A DNA stretch of 54,026 nucleotides. It comes from Mustelus asterias. Lineage: Eukaryota. This document shows positions 11,165 through 52,308 of this stretch, piece by piece. The notes beneath the pieces are model-generated. The model saw nothing but the letters and a program-made list of their open reading frames with translations, ran no database searches and was not told where the DNA came from. Both the position numbers and the translations under genes were made by a program. Location: NCBI RefSeq assembly GCF_964213995.1, contig NW_027591101.1, forward strand, positions 62,001 to 116,026, read 5' to 3'. Position 1 is the stretch's first letter. Every line of letters begins with the position of its first letter.

Positions 11165-11204
11165 GGCTTTTGTGCGGGGTTCGCTGTATTTCTGCACCAG
11201 TGTG
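11165..11204 (-). other. Recombination signal sequence (23-type, 24-bp spacer) of the minus-strand V
   Basis: CACACTG (11204-11198), 24-nt spacer, then ACAAAAGCC (11173-11165), directly after YFCAME. Confidence 0.85.
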
Positions 11205-11859
11205 AACTCCATGGCACAGAAATACACGGCGCAGTCAGTCCTAAGAGCCCTGGCGATTTTTAAGGGAACAGTGTTGTTTCCTTTGTGCAACGCAGCCGAG
11301 AACCTATCTGACAAATCCGGAGACGTATCGGTATTGCCCGAGCTATATATCTTCATCAAATATCTCAGAGCTTGCCCGGGATAGTGGATCATAGAAATCA
11401 TAGAAACCTTACAGTACAGAAAGAGGCCATTCGGCCCATCGAGTCTGCGCCGACCACAATCCCACCCAGGCCCTACCCCCATATCCCTACATATTTTACC
11501 CACTAATCCCTCTAATCTACACATCCCAGGACACTAAAGGCAATTTTAGCATGGCCAATCAACCTAACCCGCACATCTTTGGACTGTGGGAGGAAACCGG
11601 AGGAAACTCACGCAGACACGAGGAGAATGTGCAAACTCCACACAGACAGTGACCCAAGCCGGGAATCGAACCCAGGTCCCTGGAGCTGTGAAGCAGCAGT
11701 GCTAACCACTGTGCTACCGTGCCCCCCCACTATTCTGGATGCACCATAACACAGTTTGAAAAGCAGCTGTCGAGTATTTACAGTCCAACAATATGCTCTG
11801 TCCTTCCAGAACGCTTCATTTAGATCGATCTTGAAATCCTGAATCTTCAACATTTATCC
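11205..11859 (-). pseudogene. T-cell receptor alpha/delta-type V pseudogene, split by an HE1 SINE
   Basis: After the acceptor TTTTGTTACAG it reads GINVEDSGFQDRSK*SVLEGQSILLDCKYSTAAFQTVLWCIQ [SINE 11390-11731] IHYPGQALRYLMKIYSSGNTDTSPDLSDRFSAALHKGNNTVPLKIARALRTDCAVYFCAME. Both Cys and the Trp are present, TGA lies at 11818-11816, and an RSS follows. Leader exon not confidently located. Confidence 0.92.
11390..11731 (-). mobile_element. HE1-type V-SINE, full length, with target-site duplication
   Basis: tRNA-derived head (GGCACGGTAGCACAGTGGTTAGCACTGCTGCTTCACAGC), V-domain and CR1-like tail ending TTTCTATGATTTCTATG. Flanked by ATCCAGAAT/ATCCACTAT on the minus strand. Confidence 0.95.
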
Positions 11860-14689: not shown

Positions 14690-14735
14690 ATGGAGTTCCT
14701 CACCGTCTGCATTGTGTTCGGGCTGTTTCTTGTCG
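14690..14735 (+). CDS. Leader exon (L-PART1) of TCR alpha/delta-type V gene
   Basis: ATG in GCCGCCATGG; encodes MEFLTVCIVFGLFLV plus 1 nt; phase-1 donor G|GTAAG at 14736. Confidence 0.93.
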
Positions 14736-14950
14736 GTAAGGATGACTGCAATCTGGTTAAATGTTATCTCGATCTGAAACTTTAACTCTGCTTCTCTCCA
14801 GTGATGCTTCCTGACGCTGCTGAGTAATTCAGCCTTTATTTGTCTTTATTTCATAACTCCAGTTATGTAGACTGGACTGTAAAGTGTTAATATTATTTCA
14901 GCAGCACGTCCAACACATAGTTTATTTTTCTTCTCGAATACATGTTACAG

Positions 14951-15257
14951 ATCCGAGTGATGGAGATTCTGTTTCTCAGCCGCAGTCTTTAGAGAGGAGA
15001 GAAGGTGAAACGGTGACTCTCCGATGTACCTACAGCACTACAGCGAGCGACTATGTCCTATATTGGTACAGACAGCAGCCACAGAAGAATTTGCAGTTCA
15101 TTATATGGAAAAGGTCCTGGATTACACAAGAAGACAGAGGGGAAGGTTTTGGACCCAATTTCTCTGCTGATCTCCAGACCTTGGCTAAATTAACCACTTT
15201 AACCATCTCGAGCCTACAGCTGACTGGCGCTGGCCGCTATTACTGCGCTTTCAGACT
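14951..15257 (+). CDS. T-cell receptor alpha/delta-type variable gene segment (V exon), open frame
   Basis: Acceptor GTTACAG| is in phase with the leader. Reads (D)PSDGDSVSQPQSLERREGETVTLRCTYSTTASDYVLYWYRQQPQKNLQFIIWKRSWITQEDRGEGFGPNFSADLQTLAKLTTLTISSLQLTGAGRYYCAFRL, with conserved Cys, WYRQ and YYC. DSVSQ, CTYST and YLYWYRQ-like motifs fit TRAV/TRDV. Confidence 0.95.
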
Positions 15258-15296
15258 CACAGTGACAGAAAGCAGTATCACTCCCGTACAAAAACT
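15258..15296 (+). other. Recombination signal sequence (23-RSS)
   Basis: CACAGTG (15258-15264), 23-nt spacer, then ACAAAAACT (15288-15296). Confidence 0.97.
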
Positions 15297-23400: not shown

Positions 23401-26400
23401 GTTTATTTATTTTAAATGTTCTAATTTCTTAGAACCCTCTATGGAGAAAATTCACTTTTCTTTTTACATTTTCCTTTCAGTTGTCCCAATGATAAACTTC
23501 ATTCATCTCTGGCTTCCGTGAATGTATGAAACTCCTAAACAGCTCATGTATTTGAATTGAAGATTATGTGATGCTTTAATTATTAGCTGGTAATAGTTCT
23601 GTTATGTATTCTTGTTTATTAAGTGCCGGATAAAGTCAGAGGTCAGTTGGAAAATGGATTAAAACACATCACGAATGATAAGCATATTACTGGAAAATGA
23701 TAATCTCTGCATCTCACACAAGTCCCTGCTATAAACCTCGAAGGTGTGCTGATTTGTGCAAATTATGGCAAACGTTAGCCTGTCCCTATACCTGACAGGA
23801 GATGAACACACCTGTAATTCTCAGACTTCATAATCCAAGTAATGTAACGGATTGAAACTGCTGTTCTTCAGAGAATGTTCAATATTTCTCTTTCTGTAGT
23901 TTTTAGCCGCTATCTTCACCAATTCCATGGTAATCGCCCTATTTTTGTTTGACTGGACTTTCTGCAAGTTGTATGATCTAGAAAATCTAATGTAATATGA
24001 GTCAGAGCCAGGTGTATCATAAGGAGAGACCAGACATTATGTATTAAATAGGGATATTGGTTGATGAACATGGACTGTTCAAGAAGGCAGCTTATCAACA
24101 CTTTCTCAAGGGCAATTAGGGACCTAAGCACACCATCCCACCAATGGTTAAAAATACAGCAGTCATGACAGGGACAGAATCTGGTCAAATATAGGCGGAT
24201 GCGCTGATGATACAAAGAAAACATTAATCGGCTGTGAGAATAATATGAATCAAAATATGGACCAGATAGGAATGAGAGGGACAGGACCTGAAATAACATT
24301 AGAATAAACAGTTAGTTGTTTGATCACTTTGTACAATATTAACTGGGAGGTGTCAAATGTAACAATATTAGAGAACGTTTTTTTAAAATTCCGAACTGAA
24401 TGAGTAATGGTTTCCAAGAATTACCATGGAGAATTAAAGCATTGAAATGTGGATGACGGGCGCTATTATAGCAACGATTACAATCAATCTTAATGTATAA
24501 CACGCAATAAAATTGAGTTTAAGAAATGCAGTGCTTGGTGTAATTTTAACAGAAACAATGTGCAGTATTTTACTGAACACATAACTGGGTCGATTCTGAT
24601 GATGACACAGTCAGTTTCTGCTGCACACTGTCAAAGGTCTGTTTGAAATAATCGTGAGTGAGAGACAGCGCCTATTGATATGCTAACAAATGCTTTGTTT
24701 AATTCTTAATAACAGAGCCAAGTGCCATTGCAATATGGTCAGGAAAGAGTTAGTGCAATCATACTGACAGGGTCTAGTGTCAGGACAGCTACAACACAAA
24801 CTTCTGGAAATACTCTGCGTCTCAGACAGGATCTGAGGAGAGAAACAGTGAACGTTTTAAACTAAATGTTGACGATGAATCAGTCTCCAAAACCCATAAT
24901 GTAAGGGTGCAAAGGATAAGAATATGTGAAAAACAAACGTATTTTCCTTCTGCTGTGTGACGTGTTGAGTCTTTCTCAGCACATTACATTTAGGTTTCAG
25001 ATTTTCAGCGTCTGTGGCAGGTTACATTTGTAATTGTGCAATAGGAACTGGGAACAGACCAGATCGACACTGGCTAACTGCAGTCACACAGACTCCTCGG
25101 AATGATTTGGGTTCAAGTCTGAGTTCAGAGTATTGACCACATAATAAAGGCCAATGTTCACGATGATATTTCATATTCAATTTCTTTCTGTTTCTTTTAT
25201 CTGTTATTTTCTTCGACTCAGAATGGGTGAGAGAGCTGAAGAAGAGAGAAACTCTCGACATTTCTCCTTCCAACGATGGACGCCTTCCTGTGATCTTATC
25301 ACTCTTTTGACGTTTGGTACAGAAATGATGCTTGGACAATGATATAAACGAACCATCCAGATAGTCCTATTCTCGACAAGACATCAAATTTAAACATCAT
25401 CAAGTGTTTATCTAATTCAATTTAGAAAGTTACTGTCAAATCTGATTCCCTCACCCTTTCAGGCTGCTCATTCCAGTTCATGTCAACTCGTTGTGTAAAA
25501 GTAAACAATTATTCTTCTAACGTCATCTGTCTAATAACCTGTGCACACTGGTTAGCGACACTCCTGCCACTCACACCTTAATGATTTTGAAAACTTTAAT
25601 TATATAGACTGACAGGGAGATGAAGAGAGATACCAGGAGAGATAGGAAAATTAAAATGAGAAATAGAGACAGGGTGCTGGCAGTTAAAAGCTGAGAACCA
25701 TAAAAGAGAATGTAACAGAGAGAGAGAAATGATAGAAAAATGTGTAAATTAGCAAGATCTCATTTCTCGCCTCAGAGAACGAAGGGAGCTCAGTGACTGA
25801 TCCACTGACCATGCAGTTATGTCCTGGAATGGAAGCTCTAAACAGATCACAACAGGCTAATCTGTAAATGTCACCCCAATGTGACCTATGTGACACTGCC
25901 GTGACTGAAGACAGATATAGGCCGCCTTGACAGATGTTCTCACCAGATTGTGGTCCATGGATTTATTTTTTTCTCAGAAGTGAGATATACGGTTTGCAAC
26001 AGAGGAACAGGAAGATGTGTCACCTGGGAACGAAAGAGCCGGGGTCAGTTTGATGTTATCGCCGTGAACAGACTTCCTGCCTGTGAGGGTGAACTCACTC
26101 TGACAGCATCGAGAACAACCGCACAGAATGCTGCCGGTCTCAGCATTACATTCACCTCCATTCCCATTTCAATGTGTAAAAGAAATGAAAATAGTTTGGT
26201 TTTTAGCACAGTAATTGAAGGAGAGATGGACTGACGATTATGAGTGGGAGAAAAATCGGAAAATTAAAGGAATGGTTTTTCCCACAGAGTGCTCTTCTGA
26301 AATACAAAAATTTGAGTGTGAGATGTTTATTGTGAGAAATGTTTCTTCATATGAGGGGGTAGCGAACCTGTGGAATGCTCCAGAGCAGAATGGTGTGGAT

Positions 26401-26855: not shown

Positions 26856-28719
26856 TGTCGTTGTCTCTTAACTACCGAAGAAACCATTCTATTCTTTCAA
26901 ATTTGCTGCAGAAATTCAAACAAGAATAAAACCGATGACAGGGCAGGTTTTCAGTAGCTGGTTCACAGCCACCTTCTCAGGGTGGGCAATTAATGGTGAA
27001 TTTTTCAGTGATGCTGACATCCCGAGAATAAATAAAACAGAGCAAAATACTGCAGATTCTTGAAATCTGAAACAAAAACAACAAAATGGATACTGAGCAG
27101 GTCAGTGGGGATCAGCTGAGAGAGAAACAGATTCGCATTTCAGGTCGATGATAGAATGCAAAATCTCACTGATGTAATTCTAAAGAGCAGAACTCGACGC
27201 ACCGAGGGGAATCCTGAAGAAAATGACTGGGTTGTTGGGTCTTGCAGTGGCCCAGATTCCTAAAGAGACGTGTAGAATTTTGAACTCCAGAATTCTTGCT
27301 CTCCTGCAATCCATCCCTCAGGATAAAGCCTGTAGAAAGGACACTGTCAGACCATCAATGAACGGTTTTACTTGGTGAAATCGGAGCATGATGCTCAAAA
27401 ACCAGAAGACAAAATCAACTGAGGGCAGATGGAGGAAGGGATTTCATAGGTTGAGAATTAACTTTATTTGTCATATAAAATAGCCATGTGGAAACCTTGT
27501 CAACAATTAATAGAAGAAATCCCTTACAATCAATTTGTATTGCCACTTTAAACTTTATGCAAATTGCATTGCTTTATTTGGTAAATCAAACAGTCTGTTC
27601 TATCAATTATAATCTGTATGGATGTTATTAAAATGAATCTCAGAATGAAAATATCCTCTGCCAATATATATTCTTCAATAAAAATCACAATTTATTTGGT
27701 CAGAGATGTGTGGGAGCTTGCTGTGCACAGATTACCTGCTGTATTTCCAACATCACGACTGTGACTAAATTCAGCAAAGGTACATCAGCGAGTTTTAAAT
27801 GCTTTCGGGCGAAATGAGGTCGGGTAAAGCATTTTAAAAATGGAAGTTCTTTTCACATGTCATCATTTTAAGTGTTAATTTTTGATATGTTGAAACCTCT
27901 GAAATTAATGTGAATCAAGGTCACTCCTCTGGCTGATGCTTTAACTTGTGTAGTTCAAGTAGATTAAATCGCCAATCAAATTGACTTTCAATGGACCCAC
28001 AAGCCTGTTCACAGATGCTTCATTTATTATCAGGACTTTTCGAACTGATTCTTAAGTTGAATGTATCTTTTATTTTTAATTAAATAGCATCTGGTCTAAT
28101 TGGTGTTCAAGAAGCTTCGAATCATTTTGAACCACCTGTGAATATTCTTAAAATAAATCGCTATTGTGAGTTGAAGCTAATCAATAGGTGGCGGTTTATC
28201 TGGTTTTGCTACCATGAACATTTCACTGTAACCAGTGAGATGTTGATGTAAATAAATACAGAAATAGAAATCCCAGATTAGATTGTTGACTGAAAAAAGA
28301 ACAAATATTTCGCCATTTGCACAGCACAGAAATAGAGATAAACATGCAAATCAATCAACGTATTCCTGTAGTTTTTATTTTTTGAGACATTTCTTCTTCG
28401 TCACTTATATGTAAAAAATAAGCTATGATCATATCTACGATCAGAATTAGGAAAAAGTCCCGCTAATTTCGAACTATAATCACACGACAAATATGTATGT
28501 CGAGATTTCCTGTGTTTTATCTGTTTCTCTGTGTCTTCCTCCTGTCTGGTTCTGTGCATTGTCTCTTCACACTGCGCCATTGTCTTCAGTCCAGAATGTG
28601 AAGTTAACTTTTAGCCGATGTATCACCTTAACCTTATTCATGCGCTTCTAAGTGAATGGATTCTGTTCAATCAATTGAATCCGTTGAGGAAGCTGTGCTT
28701 TAAAATGTGCGTTGATCAT

Positions 28720-28990
28720 TTCCTGTATCTGACCCGGGCTGTGCCAGCCATTTCTATGTTTGAATGGACAGAACATAGGAAGTATAGCTGACTCTAAGCT
28801 GCACTGTACCTGTCCTGCGAGGGTTTGCTATTTACTGTGTAGAGGGAGATTGTCTCTGGATCTAAACTGTGCTGTAAATGATCTGGGTTTGTTTGACTGG
28901 ACAGCGCAGAGGGAGATTTACGCTGTACCTCGCACCAATGTCAACCTGCGTTGGGAATCTCTGAAGGAAGAGTACAGAGGAAGTTATCCC
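28720..28990 (+). repeat. Degenerate ~65-bp satellite (second array at ~42670-43290)
   Basis: Unit approximately GTGTAGAGGGAGxTTTACTCTGTATCTAACCCGTGCTGTACCTGCCCTGGGAGTGTTTGATGGGACA, recurring in tandem. Confidence 0.7.
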
Positions 28991-29554
28991 GAGAGTCTTA
29001 AATTCATAGAGATATACAGCACGGAAGCCGACCCTTCAGCGCAATTCCTCCATGCCGATTAGGTTTCCTCAACTGAACACATCCCATTCGCGTGCATTTG
29101 GTCCATATCCCTCTAAACCTTTCTTATCCATGTACCTGCCCAAATGTATTTTATATTTTGTAACTGGACCCGACTTTACCATTTCCTCTGGCAGCTCATT
29201 CCATATACGCTCTGGTACACACTGAGACATGGACAATGCAACAGTTAGGTGGATCACATAATACAAAAATAACAGAGACAGTGCACAGACTGAATAGCCA
29301 AATACATAGACTGGCGCAGAATTGACAAAAGCAGGATCAAGTTTTTTAGAATCTCATGACCTATTAGAGCACTGACTGTAACCAAACCACATGTCATACA
29401 AGAAGGATGTTGTTACAGTTTCCTGCACTTCATAAATGTTCCAATGCATCAAGAATTCAGACACGGCCTCTTGCCATATGACCTGATACATGGTTTGGTG
29501 CAGTCATAACTATGAACTTAAATAGGGGCTTGGCCTCATAAAATAATCGATATA

Positions 29555-37150: not shown

Positions 37151-39899
37151 ATGCACCTTTTGATATAATTAATTGAGATTCAAACTTATTGGGACCACAT
37201 TGGCCTTTCTGTGAATCAAATCTGTTCCAGAATTCAATGGGAAAATAAATTAATTCAGACCGAGGATAATGACCAGCTACCCAGCAGCCTCTGCACTTCA
37301 TTGAAAAGTGATCACCTCATCATCACACAGAAACTCACGATATATAACTGGGGCGTGCGATCCGTTTTTTAAAGCGACTGTATAACTGAAACTGTCTCTA
37401 CCTATGTGGAGTTTTGGAATCTTAAAATCCCGATTTTTTGTTACATTGTTTTGGAACGCAATTGAAAAATTGCATCTGTCCAGTAACTTTCGCTATGTTC
37501 CTGTTCCATATTATTAAGTTTTTAGCCTGTTACTTCCCCAATATGATTGATGATAAGCTGAGTGATTTGTTGCATATGAAAGGGCCACATGTTCCAAATA
37601 TTACAATCCTCCCACCTCAACCTAATTATGTTCCCTCTTTCTATCTTGGATATGAAGATATGAAGACAATCAGCAGAGGAAATACATAAACATGAGTGCC
37701 GCAGGAATATCTCCAGACTCCTCTCAAAGAGGTTCAGCTCGTTTGTTCCCGTTAGCCCGGGGGTGAAATTCACCCAGAAAAGCTGGAAGGACTGAAGGTA
37801 ATCGACTGACACAAATGAAATACAAAATCTGCATCAATTTCTGAAGTAGTCAAGCACAAATATGAGCGTCTAGAACAGCAAAATTCAAAAATCATCGATC
37901 GTTACATCCATCATTCCATTCACTGGTTCCTCAAACAAAATAATCAGGCATCCAAATATCATTCATTCCTGCATCAACACAACCATTTGTTTATTTTAGG
38001 AAAGATGATGGTGCAATATTAATGCAAGACGCCCAGGCTGATGCTATGGGGACACGAGTTAAATCTGACCGCGGCAGCTGGTTTAATTTGAATTCAATTA
38101 ATACATTTGGAATACATAAGAATGGTGATCATGGAAACCTCTCTGATTCACCAATTAAGGAAATCTGCCATGCCACCTGTTCTCACCAGGATGTTTCTCC
38201 AGACTGACAGAAATGTGGCAGACTCGTCAATGCCTTCCGAAACGGCCTAGAAAACCAATCATTTCAAGGGAATTGGGGAGAGGAAACAAATGCTGGTGTT
38301 GCAAGACTTTCCACAGCCCATGGAAGATGAAAGGGAAAGAAAATACAAACATACATAATTATGTATGCAACATGTAATCTCCCTCTGAGTCAACTATCAC
38401 AGTCTGCCTGTATTTATTTCTGTCTGTCCATCGCAATGTTCAGATCTGTTGGATAGCTCATCTTTGGTACCAGTATCGTGTCAGAGAAGCTGGATAACTT
38501 TCCTTTCTTGAGAGATGAGAATAATTCATATAGGTTGACAACGTCGGAAAATTTAATTGTCTGCAGTACCATTGCAGGCTATATTTGTTTATAAAGAGTC
38601 CTCATTGAAAATCCGAAGAGTTTGAAGTTGGCTTAAGTACTGAGTTAAAACATCTTTGATTTACTGAACAACACCCCAAGATGCTTCCTGTAAACAACTT
38701 TGGGCATTTGGCAGCAGGCTGGATTGCTGCCAAATACTGTGTGGAACAGATTAGCGTGAATCTGAATGGACAAAATAGGATTCAGCCATTTAAAAAATAA
38801 ATGTTTCATTCTCATCTCAACCATCTAAACAAATGTTTTAAATAAATGTCATGTTCATCCTGTGATTAAACACTATCGGAAAATATAAATTGGCAAGATG
38901 ATTTTTTATTTGTACAACTTCCAAGTAAATGTCATTCCAATAATTAAAGCCTGGATAAAAGCAAATTACTGCGGATGCTGGCATCTGAAACCAAAGGACA
39001 ATGCTGGAAAACCTCAGTAGGTCTGGCAACATCTGTCAGGAGAGAAAGGAGCTGATGTTTCGAGTCCAGATGGCCCGTTGTCAAAGCAATTAAAGCCCTT
39101 TTGCAAACAACCTCATGAAAATGCGAGGGAGAAATGTTGATCGTCCCAAATCCCCAGCCTAATGAGATCAGTGTAGTGGCAAAAAAGGAATAGAAATAAA
39201 ATTAAAACCATAAAACCGCCTTGAACAGCGGGGATTCCTGGGATATTCTCAGAGTTCTGCACATCATTTCAATGGCAGCGTCTCTTGTACCTGTTTAACA
39301 CTGGGTACTGTTCTACAGTGCAATGTGATTTGAACATCGCTCTCATAGCTGCTCTCATCGCTCTCATAGCTGCCAATGAGTGGAGAAATGACAAGTTCAG
39401 AACGTGATTCAATGGAAGACAAAACACTTATTCGCGTGATATTGGGCAATATGCCACAAAGCGCTGATATCTTTTGTTCCGAATACCAGTGAATGTTAGA
39501 CAGCCAGTGGCCAATTAAATGAGCTGCAATGATTTGGATGCTGAAGGAGAACTTTACGGATCGCCCTGTCCGTTCCGATTCATTAACATCTCTGTCAAAA
39601 GTTGATTTCAATTTTATGTTTCCCTGTCAACTCACTATATAATTATAAGTCAACTGGCTTTATTTCATCGCTAATTTCCACAGGGTTAAGTGGCTGTTCG
39701 AGAAATATAAGGAGAAAAATTATATAATAAAAGGAGTTTCTTCTTATATCCAATCCCAAATTGCAGCGATAGTCATCGGCACTGCAAATAGCATCACTTT
39801 CTTTCATCCGCACATCTAGTCACATGAATCTATAATAATTTATCTGATAAATTATGTTTTGTTTGTGTAATGTGTTAGAGACACGGAATTGTTGCAAAT

Positions 39900-40222
39900 C
39901 AAAGAACAAAGAACAGTGCAGCAATAGAACAGGCCTTTCGGCCCTCCAACCCTGCGCTGATCGCGTTGTCCTATCTCGACCAGCCGCCTGTATCCCTCTA
40001 TTCCCCGTATGTTCATATGTCTGATCCAGATAAGTATTCAATATTGCTAAAGTGTCTGCCTCAACCACATCACTTGGCAGTTCATTCCAGGCCCCCACCA
40101 CTATCTGCGAAAGAAAACTTCCTCCGCACAGCTCCACTGAACCTTTCCCCCCTTAGCTTGAACTTGTGCCCCCTTGTTAATTGTCATTTCTGCCCTGGGA
40201 AAAAGCTTCCAACTGTTTCAAC
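39900..40222 (-). mobile_element. CR1-type LINE 3' end
   Basis: Tail CAAAGAACAAAGAACAG...; FLSQIVVGAWNELPSDVVEADTL. Confidence 0.85.
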
Positions 40223-40377
40223 TGATGCATTTTCCCTGATAAGGTAATTTCATCTTGTTTATGTCAATTCATTTGTCAAATGCTTCAGAAATAAAGAGAC
40301 TTAATTTCGAATGTTTTTTTTTTAACTAACAGATGCTCAAATGCAATTTCGCATTTAGGTTCAGCAGAGAGATTACA

Positions 40378-40868
40378 ATGGATCTCACGTTACTGTCTCA
40401 GTGTTGGTCTGCAATGTTTCAGAGACTGTAATCATTTCACCAGGATTATTCCTCGGGGTTTTGATATAATAATCCCAGTTGCCAGACGGAGTCGTGTTGA
40501 CTCAGCCAAAGGCAGCGACAGGGTGTCCCGGAAACTCCCTGAGACTGATTTAAATAATCGGCGGGTTCACTGTTGGCAGCAATTCGATGGCCTGAGTCTG
40601 ACAGGTTATTGGGCAGGGTCTAGAGTGTCTTCTTCAGGACGGTTGTCCTGGATCATCCTCCAACACAAATCCCCCAGGGATTCCGAATTAATTTATTAAT
40701 ACGTTTTTAATATTTATTTATTGAATAGTCACAAGTCAGGCTTACAATAACACTGCAATGACACTACTGTGAAATTCCCCTTAATTAATTTTATCCGCCC
40801 AAAGACACTTCAAACAAAACCTTAGCTTTGGAAATTAAGAGCCTGAAGATCAAGGATTCCCAAGTTTA
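40378..40868 (+). pseudogene. Immunoglobulin heavy-chain (shark IgM-like) V pseudogene, truncated before YYC, no RSS
   Basis: From 40491 in one frame: VVLTQPKAATGCPGNSLRLI*IIGGFTVGSNSMA*V*QVIGQGLECLLQDGCPGSSSNTNPPGIPN*F [insertion ~40697-40790] ..KDTSNKTLALEIKSLKIKDSQVY. This matches the shark VH pattern VVLTQPEAETGxPGGSLRLTC..SGF.....M.WVRQVPGQGLEWL...RFT.SKDTSNN.F.L.M.SLK.ED. A decayed leader (ATG 40378) and acceptor CCCAG (40478) lie upstream. Confidence 0.9.
40697..40790 (-). mobile_element. 5'-truncated SINE tail inserted in VH framework 3
   Basis: TTTATTTATT...GTCACAAGTCAGGCTTACAATAACACTGCAATGACACTACTGTGAAATTCCCC matches the tail at 11963-12000; flanked by AATTAATTT direct repeats (~40686 and ~40783). 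Confidence 0.75.
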
Positions 40869-41549
40869 CCCCATCTGTCCTACATTTGATTCCATTTCCA
40901 CAGCGATGAAAATGACTTTTAGCCGAAAAAGACATCCACTTGTATCAAAGCTGCTCCAGAAAGTCAAACAATGAAAAAGCCCACCAGAGGACAGGTTTTC
41001 AAACAAAAAATAGTTCACGACTGCCTTGTTAGGATGGACAATCAATGCTGATTTTGTCAGTAATGCTCACATCCAGAGAATGAATTAAAACAGGACAAAG
41101 TACTGCAGATTACGGAAATCTACAAAAACAACAAGAAATATTGCTCAGCATGTTAGTGGGCATCAGCAGAGAGAGAGAGATTCACATTCCAGGTCGATGA
41201 AAGGATGTAAATTCACATTGATATAATTCTTATGAGTACGACAGGCCTTCCGAGTATCCTGGACAAATGTCCATTCCTCAACTAAAATCGCAAATGCACT
41301 GGTGATTTATCATATTTCGGTGTATGGGAGCTTGCTGTGCACAAATAGCCTGCTGGATTTCTAACATTTCAACAGTGACTAAATTCAGTAGAGATTCATC
41401 AGTGAGTTATAAATGCTTTGGAACGACATAAGGTCAGGTAAAGCGTTTTAAAAATGCAAGTTATTTCCAAATGTTCACATTATAAAACGCAACTTTCGAT
41501 ATGTTGAAAGCTCCAAGAATTAATGCAATTGCAGCTACCTCTCTGCCTG

Positions 41550-41860
41550 ATCATAGTATCATAGAATCCCTACAGCGCAGAAGGAGGCCATTCGTCCCAT
41601 TGAGTCTACACTGGCTCACCATCATAGCATCCTACCAAGCCCACCCTCTACTCTATTCCCACATATACACCCGCTATTCCCCCCATCCTACACATCCTTG
41701 GACACTTAGGGGCAATTTAGCATGGCCAATCCAACTAACCTGAACATCTTTGGGCAGTAGGCAAAAACTGGAGCACCCGGGTTAAACTCACATGGACTTG
41801 GGGAGAATATGCACAGTCACCCAAGGCTGGAATCGAACCCGCTTCCCGTCGCCATGACGC
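41550..41860 (-). mobile_element. HE1-type SINE (diverged)
   Basis: ATCATAGAATCCCTACAG tail; GGGCAATTTAGCATGGCCAATCCA; GGAATCGAACCC. Confidence 0.85.
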
Positions 41861-44139
41861 AGAAAATATAACTGTACCTCTGTAATGATACTCATTCTGG
41901 GTTTCCTATCCTTCTCTCGATGTGAGTGCGATACTGCACACATGCTTTAACTTGCTCAGTTTATCTAGATTATCGTCAATCAGATTGATACATTGTGGAA
42001 TACCAGCCTGTTCACAGACGCTTTATTTGTTGTGACATCAGAGCTTTCAAAACTAATTTTAATTGGAATATATATTTTATTTAAATTAAATAGCATCTGC
42101 TCTAATGAATGTTCTAGAAATTTCTATTCATTAAGAACCAACTGCCGATATGCTAACAAATACACTGCAATTGTGTTGAATAAAGAAGCGATTGGTTGTC
42201 ACTTGGTTGTGCTGCTATAAACAATTTGCATTGCTGCCAGTTAGGTATTTATGTAAATAAACACAGAAGTAGAATTCCCAAATAAGATTGTTCACTGACA
42301 AAAATACAACAAATATTTCCCCGCCAACAGCACAGACATAAAGGCAAACATGTAAATAAATCAACGGATTCGAGCAGCGACTGCTTTTCGACATTGTGTC
42401 ACGTCATTAGATATCTATGTTCAGAATTAAGAAATGTTCCCTCTAATCTCGGAATAAAATGACACGGCCAGTGTGTTTGTGAAGATTTCCTGTGTTTCAT
42501 CTCTCTTTGTGTCTTGTCTCTTCATGGTGGATCATTGTCTTCACTCCACAACATGAAGTCAACATCTGCCCAATATATTCTTTCAGCCCGAGCCATAGGC
42601 GTGTAAAATGATCTAATTCAATTGATTGGAATTCCTAGAGGACGTTTGACTCAAAAAAGTACGTTGAGCGTTCAATGACCTTGGAATATCTGATAGAATT
42701 ATAGTGGAGATTTTCCTCATTACCTAACCTGGGCTGTTCTTAGTGGTAAGCAGTTGATATGGCAGTAGCGGAGGAACTTTCCCTTGATCTAAACCATGTT
42801 ATCCCTCCCCTTGGAGGTTTTTATTCGACAGTGCATAGGAATATTTACCCTGCATCTAACCTGCACTGTAGCTGCCCCACGAATGTTCGATATGACTTTG
42901 TAATGGGAAATTCAATCTCTGTTGTACGAGGCCTGGGTGCGTTTGATGGAACTGCAAAGATGGCTCTTTACCCTGTGCCGAACAACCAATGGCTACCTAC
43001 CTCGAGAACCTCGAAGGGAGAGCGCAGAATAGACATTTCCTAGCATAGAACTCCTGATCTGCATGCCTTCTTTGTGTTTGAGCGGACTTTGGAGAGGGAG
43101 TTTCACTGTGTTTCTAAACAGTCTACCGGTTCTGGGAAAGCTTGCCAGTTTCCAGAGAATTTCTCTTCGTATCTAACCCGTGCTGCACCACCCTTCAGAG
43201 TGTTTGATGTGGCGATGAAGAGAGAGCCTTATGTTCTATACCTAGTCCCATGTTACTTCTTCCCTGGGACTATTTCATGGGACAGTAGACCCTGTCTCAA
43301 AATTGCACAAGGAATTTATTTATCAATCTACATCTCCTCTGCACCCTTCCCAAAGCTTACACATCCTTCCTATAATGTGGCGACCAGAACTGTACACAGT
43401 ACTCCAAGTGGCATGTTATTTCAATATTTATATTTGCCACTGTGTCAGTTCATATTGAATTAGGCCCTGCTTCTTCTTATATTACACTAGAACCTGTCTC
43501 TATTTATCTTGAATAGAATATATTTTCTTGTTCGTATAAAACAAGAAACCGTGTCCGTTTCTATTACACGTCCCATGTCCCTACTTATACTAAACTAGAC
43601 CCCGAATCATCTATATTATCTTGACCTGTCTCTATTTGTATCAAACTAGATTGGGTCTCACTTCTGCAATTGATCATGTCCATATTTATATTACATTGCA
43701 GACGGCCTCAGTTATAATGCCCAATAATGTGGAAAGTGGCTGGGGAACACAATTGTCTGCATCATCCAACATACAACTCTGTGGAGTAGAAATGTGCCTT
43801 GGGCATTCTACCAGAAGAAGAAATCTAAATTCTTATTCTGGTGACTACAATACCCCGCTTGGCATGCACTGTTGATCCATACTGTCCATTTCAGCATCTT
43901 GTTGCATACGATATTTTTTTATCGCAACATAATAATGTATCGTTTATCTCTTCTCTGCGCAAAACCGTGGAATAATGCAGCCATAATTCCAACAGAGGCA
44001 TAGTCTAGTGTAGTAATAGCAATGTCCTGATCGAATGAAATACAGACAAAATTCGGATTAAATATTATATACACAGGGATCGTGTCTAGTGTAATATAAA
44101 CATAGGACATAGGTTGGAGCATAGGACATACATTGGGAC

Positions 44140-44980
44140 ATAGATAAGCTGCAGAGCTGGGCTGAGAGGTGGCAAATGGAGTTCAATGCGGAAAAGTGTG
44201 AGGTGATTCACTTTGGAAGGAGTAACAGGAACACAGAGTACTGGGCTAATGGTAAGATACTTGGTAAAGTGGATGAGCAGAGAGATCTCGGTGTCCATGT
44301 GCATTGATCCCTGAAAGTTGGCACCCAGGTTGATAGAGTTGTTAAGAAGGCGTACGGTGTGTTAGCTTTTATTGGTAGAGGGATTGAGTTTCGGAGCCAT
44401 GAGGTCATGTTGCAGCTGTACAAAACTCTGGTGCGGCCGCACTTGGAGTATTGTGTACAGTTCTGGTCGCCACATTATAGGAAGGATGTGTAAGCATTGG
44501 AAAGGGTGCGGAGGAGATTTCCCAGGATGTTGTCTGGTATGGTGGAAAGGTCTTATGAGGAAAGGCTGAAGTACTTGAGGCTGTTTTCGTTAGAGAGAAG
44601 AAGGTTAAGAGGTGACTTAGTAGAGGCACACAAGATGATCAGAGGATTAGATAGGTTGGACAGTGAGAACCTTTTTCCTCGGATGTTGATGGCTAGCACG
44701 AGGGGACAGAGCTTTCAATTGAGGGGTGATCCACACTTGGAGATAGAAATAGGAAAGATATCAGAGGTAGGTTCTTTACTCAGAGAGTAGTAAGGGCGTG
44801 GAATGCCCTGCCTGTAACAGTAGTGGACTCGCCAACATTAAGGGCATTTAAATGGTCGTTGGATGAACATATGGATGATATTGGAATAGTATAGGTTAGA
44901 TGGGCTTTAGATTGGTTTCACAGGTCTGTGCAACATCGAGGGCCGAAGGGTCTGTACTGCGCTGTAATGTTCTATGTTCT
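44140..44980 (+). mobile_element. CR1/HER1-type LINE 3' portion
   Basis: WQMEFNAEKCEVIHFG...ERVRRRFPRML...LFSLERRRLRGDL; tail TTCTATGTTCTA. Confidence 0.93.
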
Positions 44981-45879
44981 AAACTATGTTTTGGTCAGGA
45001 TCGAGTTCATTAGAATTTAATGAGCTATTAGTTTAACACTGACAGGGTCAATTTTAATTTAAACAGAGGCCTAATCCAGTAAAATAGAAATGAGGTAGTG
45101 CCAAGTGCCTTGTGGGCTAGCTAAAGGCTAAACACTTGTCTTTCCAGTGACATCCACATCCCATGACACAAACATTGAGAAATGTGAATGACTTCGTCTC
45201 TGACAAGAAAAATCGAGACGGTGGCTCGTGCAGTTTAACTGGATACAGAGGTTTGTGTGATATTAACTGAGATGGAGCCTAATGTCCTAGCATCAATTAT
45301 TGATACAGGACATAGACTGAAATAAACTGAGACAAAGAGAGTGCATTTATAGTAATTATTGATATGGTATCTAGAATGGTACACACTGAGATATGGACAA
45401 TGCAGCAATTAGAGGAGTCACATAATACAATAACATTGTAGACAGAGCATGGTGTTCAATAAAAAATATATGGACTGATGTAGCATGAATGAAAAGAGAA
45501 TCCAGTTTATTAGAATTTAGTGAGCTATTAGCGTAAGAACTGTGACCGAACAGTGTGTAATGCAAGAAGGGTGTGATCCCAGTTCCGGATATACAGATAA
45601 CCGTTCTGATGTAGTAAGAATTGAGACACAGCCTCTTGCCAAATTAACCGAGACTGTGTTCCATGCAGTCATAACTAAGAAAGTATCATGTAAATAGGGC
45701 CTTGGCATTGTATATGAATAGCTGATATATCGAGCTGAGTGCAGAGAAAGCTGAGCTAGGTCCTGCTGTAACGTGATCGAGGCACGGCCTAGTATAATAC
45801 AGACAGAAGCAGGGGCTCAATGAATATAAGAAGACAAAAATGTTTTAGATTATTTAATGGGAATTTGGTGTTACTGGTA

Positions 45880-47520
45880 AAGTCAGTGAAACCTTATATT
45901 CCTTTGAGAATGTGGTGGTGAGCCTTGTTCTTGAACCATTGAATTCGATATTGAGTAAGTAAACCCACAGTGCTAATTGGAGGGAGTTTCAAACTTTTGA
46001 TCCAATGACAGTGAAAGGTTAGAGATATAGTTCCCAGTCAAGATGGTGCGTGGATCTTATCGGCACTTGCAGGTAATTGTATTCTCACGCATCTGCTACC
46101 CTTGTCCTTTTAAGTGTCAGAAGTAATGGGTTTGGTAGTTGAGGAATGATTTGCTGCTGTACATTTGCTCATGGTTCACAATGCTACAATTGTGCATCTG
46201 TGAAGCAGGGAGTTAAGTTTAAAGTGGTGGGTGGGGTGTTCATCGAGACAGATACTTTTTCCCAGAGGGTGTGGAGCGTTTTGAGTGGCACAAGTTTGAC
46301 AAGTTGAGACTTTTGCCTTGTGGTTGATGGATAAGGTTTGGAAATTTAGTAGGTGAGTTGTTCACCGCAGAACTCCGATCCTCTGATCTGTTCATATAGC
46401 AAAATTATTGAAGTGTCAGTCTCAGTTCAGTTCATTTTTAATTATAATTACCAGGTTGTTGGTGGTGAGGAATTTAGCAATGTGTAATACCATTCAATGT
46501 CAAGATAAGATGTTTGGAATTTCGCTTATTGGAGCAGTTCAATGTTACTTGCCGCTCATTAGCCCAAGACTGAACCTTTTCTAAGTCTTACTGCAAATAG
46601 ACACAGACTGTTTCAGTCTCTGGGGAATCCCGCAACTGGTGCTGAACTTTGTGCCATTATCAGTGCACATCCCACTTCTGAACTCTGCCGAAGGCTGAGG
46701 CTTGGAGCAAGGTTATTATCGTGAGGAACTCCTGCAGCACTGCCCTGTGACTCAGATGATTGGCCTTCAACAGCTTAAACTATCATCATTTGTGCTCAGT
46801 ATTACTCCAGTCAGTGAACTGTTTTCCCCGTTTCCCATTTTGCTCGGGCTCCTTAATACCACACACGGTCAATTGCCTTTAATTTAAAGCTCTTTAATTT
46901 AAATATTCTATTTATATTTGGACTGGTTGTAAATCATTCTAGAACTGAGTGCTCCTGGCGGGACCCAAATCTTTGAGCAGGCTATTGCTGAGTCAAAGCC
47001 ATTTGATAGGATCATCCTTGAAAGTTTTCAATGTGGTGATCGAGTGAGGACTGATTGGGCAGTAATTGGCCGGGTTGTATTTGCCCTTGTTTTTGCACCA
47101 GGGCATGTCTGCCAATTTTTCACATAGTTGAGCAACTGTCAGTATTGCAACTGCACTTGAACATATTGGCTGGGACACAGCTAGTTCCAGAGAAGAAGTC
47201 TTAATTACTAGTGTTGAAATATTGTCAGGCCCAATTAGCATTTCAGTATCCAATGCACTCAGCATGATCATGTGATGTGAATTAAATTGCCGGAAGACTG
47301 GCCTTGCGCTGCTGGGAGTCACCCTGAGGAAGCCGAAATGGATCATCCTCTTGGCACTTGTGGCTAAAGGTTGTAGCAAATGGTTCAGTCTTGTTTTTTG
47401 CTCTGATGTGCCGGATCACCATCATTCAGGGCGGTTACTTTTCTTGAAGCTCCTGCTATTGTTCAATTGTTATTTGTTCAATTGACCATCACTATTCACG
47501 ACTGGATTTAGCAGGTCTGG
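45880..47520 (-). mobile_element. Second-family LINE, decayed (paralog of the copy at 30000-33895)
   Basis: ALDTEMLIGPDNISTLVIKTSSLELA...KYNPANYCPIS; colinear with the copy in the left duplicate. Confidence 0.75.
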
Positions 47521-51125: not shown

Positions 51126-51347
51126 ATGAGAGTTCCAGAATGATGGAGAAAGATTACAGACAACGGCTCATAAATGGACACTGCAACCCCGAGAACACAA
51201 TCAGCTGACGATTCAGAATATTAAACTCCAGCCCAGTTACAGGGGTTGTTAACATCAGCAGAAACAGACCCCAAATGTCAGAATGAATGTGGCTCACTCC
51301 TAGCTGCGATTAACAGCAGCACCTACAGCAGAATCCACTCCCTACAC

Positions 51348-52308
<961 letters not shown>

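Follow-up and report, generated by a model that had tools for sequence, protein, structure and literature searches.

Described systems and the DNA analysed

The TCR genes of cartilaginous fish have been described as translocons (PMC6795676). In the antigen receptor complex of elasmobranchs, IgH clusters show linkage with TCR alpha/delta, TCR-type V lie between IgH clusters, and VH are found inside the shark TCR delta locus (PMC12227049). Table S1 of that paper has a row for a lone white shark 'IgMV' 7 kb from TCRa/dV, epaulette shark 'Ig-TCRV' rows among TCRa/dV, and catshark TAILV and 'IgWVTCRD' rows, with at most one row per species naming TCR delta C. A lone IgH V among TCR V is, on these rows, of an already published kind (Flajnik et al. 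2025, PMC12227049). The rows are gene models of unstated integrity, whereas the relic described here is doubly truncated, traced to an IgM flank and present at least nine times.

With the VH of the shark IgM minicluster (V-D-D-J-Cmu), the relic shares a WVRQVPGQGLE-type FR2, 69-71% identity, the leader intron and the upstream flank; unlike that VH, it lacks promoter, leader, YYC and RSS as well as D, J and C. With the TAILV and IgW-type V found beside D-delta it has in common that it is an Ig-like V with no D-J-C of its own in a region linked to TCR delta. We analysed a 54,026-nucleotide stretch of Mustelus asterias DNA (the window, C1069:62001-116026), which belongs to an unplaced contig of the assembly; contigs are named here by C and a number. 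The usual RSS consensus was applied, together with the customary V-domain landmarks (Cys, Trp, YYC) and cryptic heptamer. The features discussed are collected in Table 1.

Table 1. Features of the window and locations of related copies (window coordinates unless a contig is named)
Feature	Position	Strand	Remark
TCR V pseudogene	11204..11859	-	split by a SINE (about 11390-11735), one stop; same duplicated cassette
Intact TCR alpha/delta V (leader, V exon, 23-RSS)	14690..15296	+	V-set E 1.2e-13
IgM-minicluster-like 5' flank	37172..39897	+	73-76% to C71 7.058-7.0605 Mb
Interspersed repeat inside the upstream flank	39900..40220	.	depth 26-30 versus about 6 on either side (loci compared)
End (~30 nt) of the homology to IgM flank, followed by sequence replacing promoter and leader exon	40229..40388	+
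3' part of leader intron and VH from FR1 to start of FR3	40389..40695	+	4 stops
5'-truncated SINE tail, ~97 nt	about 40696..40792	-	~10-nt target-site-like repeat
Remaining FR3 to TTA junction (YYC start expected)	40793..40865	+	79% to IgM VH
Foreign low-copy flank joined to V	40864..46000	+
Young relic copies	C1069, C71 (6.83, 9.46, 14.77 Mb), C353, C210, C549, C96, C119
C-delta genes	C71 7.14, 11.04, 12.27 Mb and 16 other contigs

The VH relic and its flanks

As the sequence-only reading had proposed, a colinear VH frame of IgM type runs from 40491 and reads VVLTQPKAATGCPGNSLRLI, a stop, IIGGFTVGSNSMA, a stop, V, a stop and QVIGQGLECLLQ, continuing from there. The four stops are TAA at 40551 in place of the first Cys, TGA at 40593 for the FR2 Trp, TGA at 40599 for an Arg, and TAA at 40689 for the Arg of the FR3 'RF'; in addition, the start of FR1 carries a 1-nt deletion. 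Aligned with intact IgM VH, the relic is 74% identical in its DNA over 250 nt (E 7e-37); its second segment reaches 79% over 62 nt. Since the local score with IgM VH is 154 and the maximum of 300 shuffles is 33, this likeness is beyond chance. Pfam found no family in the 68-aa relic piece with X at the stops.

Homology to IgM VH begins at 40389 and ends near 40865, where YYC should begin. The claim that YYC and RSS have been lost held up: neither was found 3' of the relic, and the 540 nt that follow scored 29 against the IgM YYC-RSS-spacer, a value reached by 6 of 300 shuffles. CACAGCG at 40899 was considered as an RSS of the relic and rejected, as it has no nonamer and lies within the foreign flank. 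Upstream, no remnants of a promoter or a leader exon were found; 40229-40261 matches IgM 7060503-7060533 best, and the leader gave no match. Leader exon, open V frame and 23-RSS, by which a functional IgM minicluster is recognized, are thus all absent, and the relic is without the parts needed for transcription, splicing and RAG joining.

The insertion between the two VH segments is, as had been suggested, a SINE tail: its sequence is that of an abundant SINE's 3' tail (90 matches in 1.59 Mb) in reverse complement, and it is bordered by the near-direct repeat AATTAATTT(T)A. On the 5' side, the 2.7 kb of flank resemble the flank of IgM clusters, at about 73% for the one at C71 10.996 Mb, with a score of 667 against IgM flank where the shuffle maximum is 37; against the flanks of both types of delta-proximal Ig-like V (described below) the scores of 23-26 are only background. 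The foreign 3' flank also occurs where there is no V, at C71 7.021 and 12.195 Mb and, in part, in the window itself at 26875-29534, which is a second, V-less copy (70-80%).

Some further observations concern the rest of the window. A broken C2H2 zinc-finger array (zf-C2H2 E 7.8e-14) lies on the minus strand at 51323-51990, within the block that was duplicated with relic and TCR V. Identity to the copy at C71 6.8 Mb rises from 96.6% in window 1-23500 to 99.6% in 23500-54026, and this jump near 23500 suggests a recombinant or converted paralog. Two ARAGORN calls in the window are likely SINE heads.

The relic was said to lie among TCR alpha/delta V segments and to share the orientation of the intact one. 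One neighbour is indeed intact and stands 25 kb away on the same strand as the relic; the other, however, is a pseudogene. The frame of the intact V is open in all six translated copies, a set that leaves out the C71 14.79 Mb copy, and another copy, at C71 6.80 Mb, is frameshifted. A protein search with this V matched three fish models and was uninformative. In eight of the nine young copies of the relic, TCR V and relic lie on the same strand, 19-31 kb apart with the TCR V upstream, and their adjacency is therefore no assembly join. The arrangement recurs at seven other places, and we accordingly rejected a join in the 18-40 kb interval.

Copies, surroundings and origin of the relic

The relic had been called solitary, and it is not: there are at least nine young copies at 92-100% identity among the 40 candidates scored of 3253, and five older relatives, three of them at 75-78% and without the SINE, the others at C71 7.0365 and 7.0512 Mb. 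The stops are present in all nine young copies, the SINE insert in none of the older relics. The three relic families (young, old and that of 7.0365 Mb) are mutually 69-79% alike and have the identical TTA junction. The relics at 7.0512 and 7.0365 Mb have the same flank and lie 10 and 25 kb upstream of the 7.061 Mb IgM cluster. Across the relic, the window, C353 and C71 6.83 Mb are 99.9-100% identical, and some relic copies may be haplotigs.

The expectation that no DH, JH or CH follows the relic was confirmed in the 13 kb up to the end of the window, which is also the end of the contig, and extended to other copies: no D, J or Cmu was found in 230 kb after the 100%-identical copy at C71 6.83 Mb, in 40 kb after those at C71 9.46 and 14.77 Mb, or in the 140 kb examined after the C353 copy (99.9%). 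Placement at the TCR alpha/delta locus was likewise supported: C71 carries an identical relic copy together with IgM clusters, three TRDC and a TRAJ-TRAC block. Scaffold C71 unites IgH clusters and TCR alpha/delta V with TRDC and TRAC and in this respect qualifies as an elasmobranch antigen receptor complex, and it shows the interleaving of IgH and TCR V described for that complex (PMC12227049). The notion of a TCR alpha/delta V array around the relic stands in so far as about a dozen TCR V segments occupy C353:60-94 kb; the array is not pure, however, since on C71 intact IgM V-D-D-J clusters are interleaved with TCR V. Genome-wide there are 110 candidates for Cmu4, of which 40 were scored.

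On a single strand at C71 7.06-7.14 Mb we found an IgM cluster, a NARTCR V-D-J and a supporting V-delta, then a pair of 23-RSS-bearing Ig-like V and, after these, D, five J and C-delta. The two Ig-like V, at 7.100 and 7.102 Mb, are 2.2 kb apart and about 15 kb before D-delta, a pairing that resembles the catshark TAILV and 'IgWVTCRD' rows, the names being given by position only (PMC12227049). They carry 23-RSS and adjoin D-delta, unlike the relic, which reaches no more than 51-54% identity with them and has no flank in common with them. Several observations on C71 and C436 stand by themselves. The supporting V-delta at C71 7.091 and 12.230 Mb are followed by two or three tandem 23-RSS copies, 61 nt apart. 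At C436:210-219 kb, a supporting V-delta is followed by an RSS of the D-delta 3'-side type and only two J motifs, and it is possibly a germline V-D join. Two IgM genes on C71 are germline-joined, one at 10.999 Mb with V fused to J and an insert in FR1, the other at 12.52 Mb with V fused to D and the J RSS remaining.

To which V the relic belongs was assessed over 276 columns. Identity is 68.5-70.7% to seven IgM VH, 50.7-54.3% to four delta-proximal Ig-like V, and 39-42% to NARTCR and TCR V, the value for NARTCR V being 41%; true NARTCR cassettes are located elsewhere. Because the relic is 69-71% identical to IgM VH versus 51-54% for the Ig-like V, and has 2.7 kb of IgM flank, we read it as the truncated head of an IgM cluster and not as a TAILV-type fossil. 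A maximum likelihood tree, which left out the 7.0512 Mb relic, five young copies, named TAILV and cluster IgW V, groups the relics with IgM at moderate support (84/83; SH-aLRT 97 and bootstrap 75 in another analysis). The AU test rejects the union of the relics with either Ig-like type alone (p 0.008 and 0.006), but does not reject a single clade of the relics and both Ig-like types (p 0.073). We regard the IgM flank as stronger evidence of origin than the tree. A protein search with the delta-proximal Ig-like V yielded no homologue.

Our interpretation, which we hold with considerable confidence, is that the relic is a non-coding piece left from the 5' end of an IgM minicluster. It comprises upstream flank and VH exon; promoter, leader, YYC, RSS and D-J-C have gone, and segmental duplication of the block that also contains an intact TCR V is likely to have spread it passively. 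First, in an ordinary germline rearrangement, an IgM V would have been fused through a TTA microhomology with an unrelated flank, its D-J-C being left behind. The relics would then have diverged to 69-79%, the Arg stop having arisen before the young and old families separated, and the young family would have gained the SINE tail and three further stops. Recent duplications would finally have copied the cassette of TCR V and relic through the antigen receptor complex. We infer that a single old rearrangement, decay and repeated duplication account for the shared TTA junction. The relic would now be without function, and any selection in the cassette would fall on the TCR V.

A different cause of the truncation would be cleavage by germline RAG at the cryptic heptamer within the YYC codons, the site used in VH replacement, in line with the germline joining that shark loci undergo. 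The break does lie at the YYC codons, and the germline-joined IgM genes at C71 12.52 and 11.00 Mb exist; a signal end, however, would retain the TACTGTG heptamer on the V side, and here it is absent, the junction showing plain TTA microhomology and a partner flank without an RSS at the join. We consider this cause highly improbable.

The sequence-only reading had taken the relic for a fossil of the use of Ig V by TCR rather than for part of an IgH cluster; the V exon and 2.7 kb of flank are instead IgM-derived. That the relic is what remains of a stand-alone Ig V, VH-delta or TAILV-like, that served TCR delta from the V array seems unlikely to us. Sharks join IgM and IgW V to TCR D-J-C (PMC5931798), the relic has no D-J-Cmu of its own and TCR V for neighbours, the AU test leaves p 0.073 for a clade with both Ig-like types, and the copy at C71 6.83 Mb is directed toward a D-J-C-delta 286-307 kb off on the same strand, the nearest D-delta being 286 kb away, past an IgM cluster. 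The IgM flank and the identity of 70% versus 52% speak against it, and so does the loss of the RSS at a junction common to all three relic families, from which it follows that no sampled relic could have rearranged. Further, more than 1.5 Mb separate the other two young copies on C71 from the closest C-delta found, and the 14.77 Mb copy runs on the opposite strand. The relics form a long branch that belongs to none of the intact IgM subfamilies sampled, and they may go back to a now extinct V of IgM descent that was devoted to TCR delta.

C-delta genes and their layout

The assembly contains 19 Ig exons of TCR-delta C genes, all 47 candidates having been scored. The query was cut from an automatically named basking-shark model, which we read as C-delta from its layout of J, C1 and TM; the C71 copy scores E 1.5e-4 for C1-set. 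Ig and TM exons are open in all 19, and 14 of the Ig exons are distinct. They fall into three groups, 78-84% alike over 2.2 kb, with 96-100% within the largest. The last J-delta lies about 7.5 kb upstream of C-delta in every case, an Ig-like V 25-38 kb upstream in 11 of the 19 units, and a NARTCR V in at least 11 units (40 of 75 candidates scored). The units vary in build, the three on C71 differing from each other, and the genes are interleaved with IgM clusters.

By comparison, we found two J-alpha/C-alpha blocks, C546:137-242 kb with 129 J motifs and C71 18.37-18.42 Mb with 30, whose two C-alpha exons are 84% alike; no C-delta was found in the 132 and 144 kb upstream of them. In contig sets searched with C-delta, two runs of the best-matching organism gave short variant-bearing pieces, and contigs of this kind provide no copy number; two other organisms gave a single long contig each.

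The copies of the cassette and of C-delta could mostly be assembly artefacts, that is, unpurged haplotigs and false duplications. Most copies are on unplaced contigs, the right 30 kb of the window is 99.6% identical to C71, and over 2.2 kb C850 and C71 12.27 Mb agree at 100.0%, so that at least this C-delta pair looks redundant. One diploid locus, however, yields two sequences at most, and here the three cassette copies on C71 are 3-8% apart, the 19 Ig exons of C-delta include 14 distinct ones and fall into three groups, and the three C-delta on C71 sit in unlike units. We judge artefact to be a very unlikely explanation for most copies. C-delta is instead likely to be represented by seven or more real loci, not by the usual one.

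At C71 7.061-7.138 Mb, D-delta is preceded on its own strand, at a distance of 56 kb, by an intact IgM V; such an IgM V would be a short cis route for joins between IgM V and TCR delta. In a broader reading, which we advance tentatively and hold with slightly more doubt than belief, TCR delta would have passed from one translocon to Ig-like clusters, at least seven and perhaps about 18 J-C-delta units having arisen by a segmental amplification that the relic marks. Many units would be headed by a NARTCR cassette, an Ig-like V and a D of their own, would be interleaved with IgM and apparently uncoupled from J-alpha/C-alpha; 'trans' joining of IgM V to D-delta would be a short cis join, and several C-delta might rearrange independently per cell. 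The repeated, delta-derived double-V units of marsupial and monotreme TCR-mu, each with its own C, are similar (PMC7615758), but TCR-mu is a separate locus, whereas in this shark it is C-delta itself that recurs, among IgM clusters. None of the titles and abstract openings that our literature searches found reports many shark C-delta genes, which is weak evidence of absence.

The relic itself is of little weight, a leftover from the turnover of IgM clusters; it shows that a VH standing alone next to TCR V does not count as evidence of use by TCR before its flanks and RSS have been checked. The multi-copy layout of C-delta is the lead worth following: many open C-delta units would raise testable questions on allelic exclusion of TCR delta, on how IgM V reach D-delta, and on how loci change from cluster to translocon layout or back.
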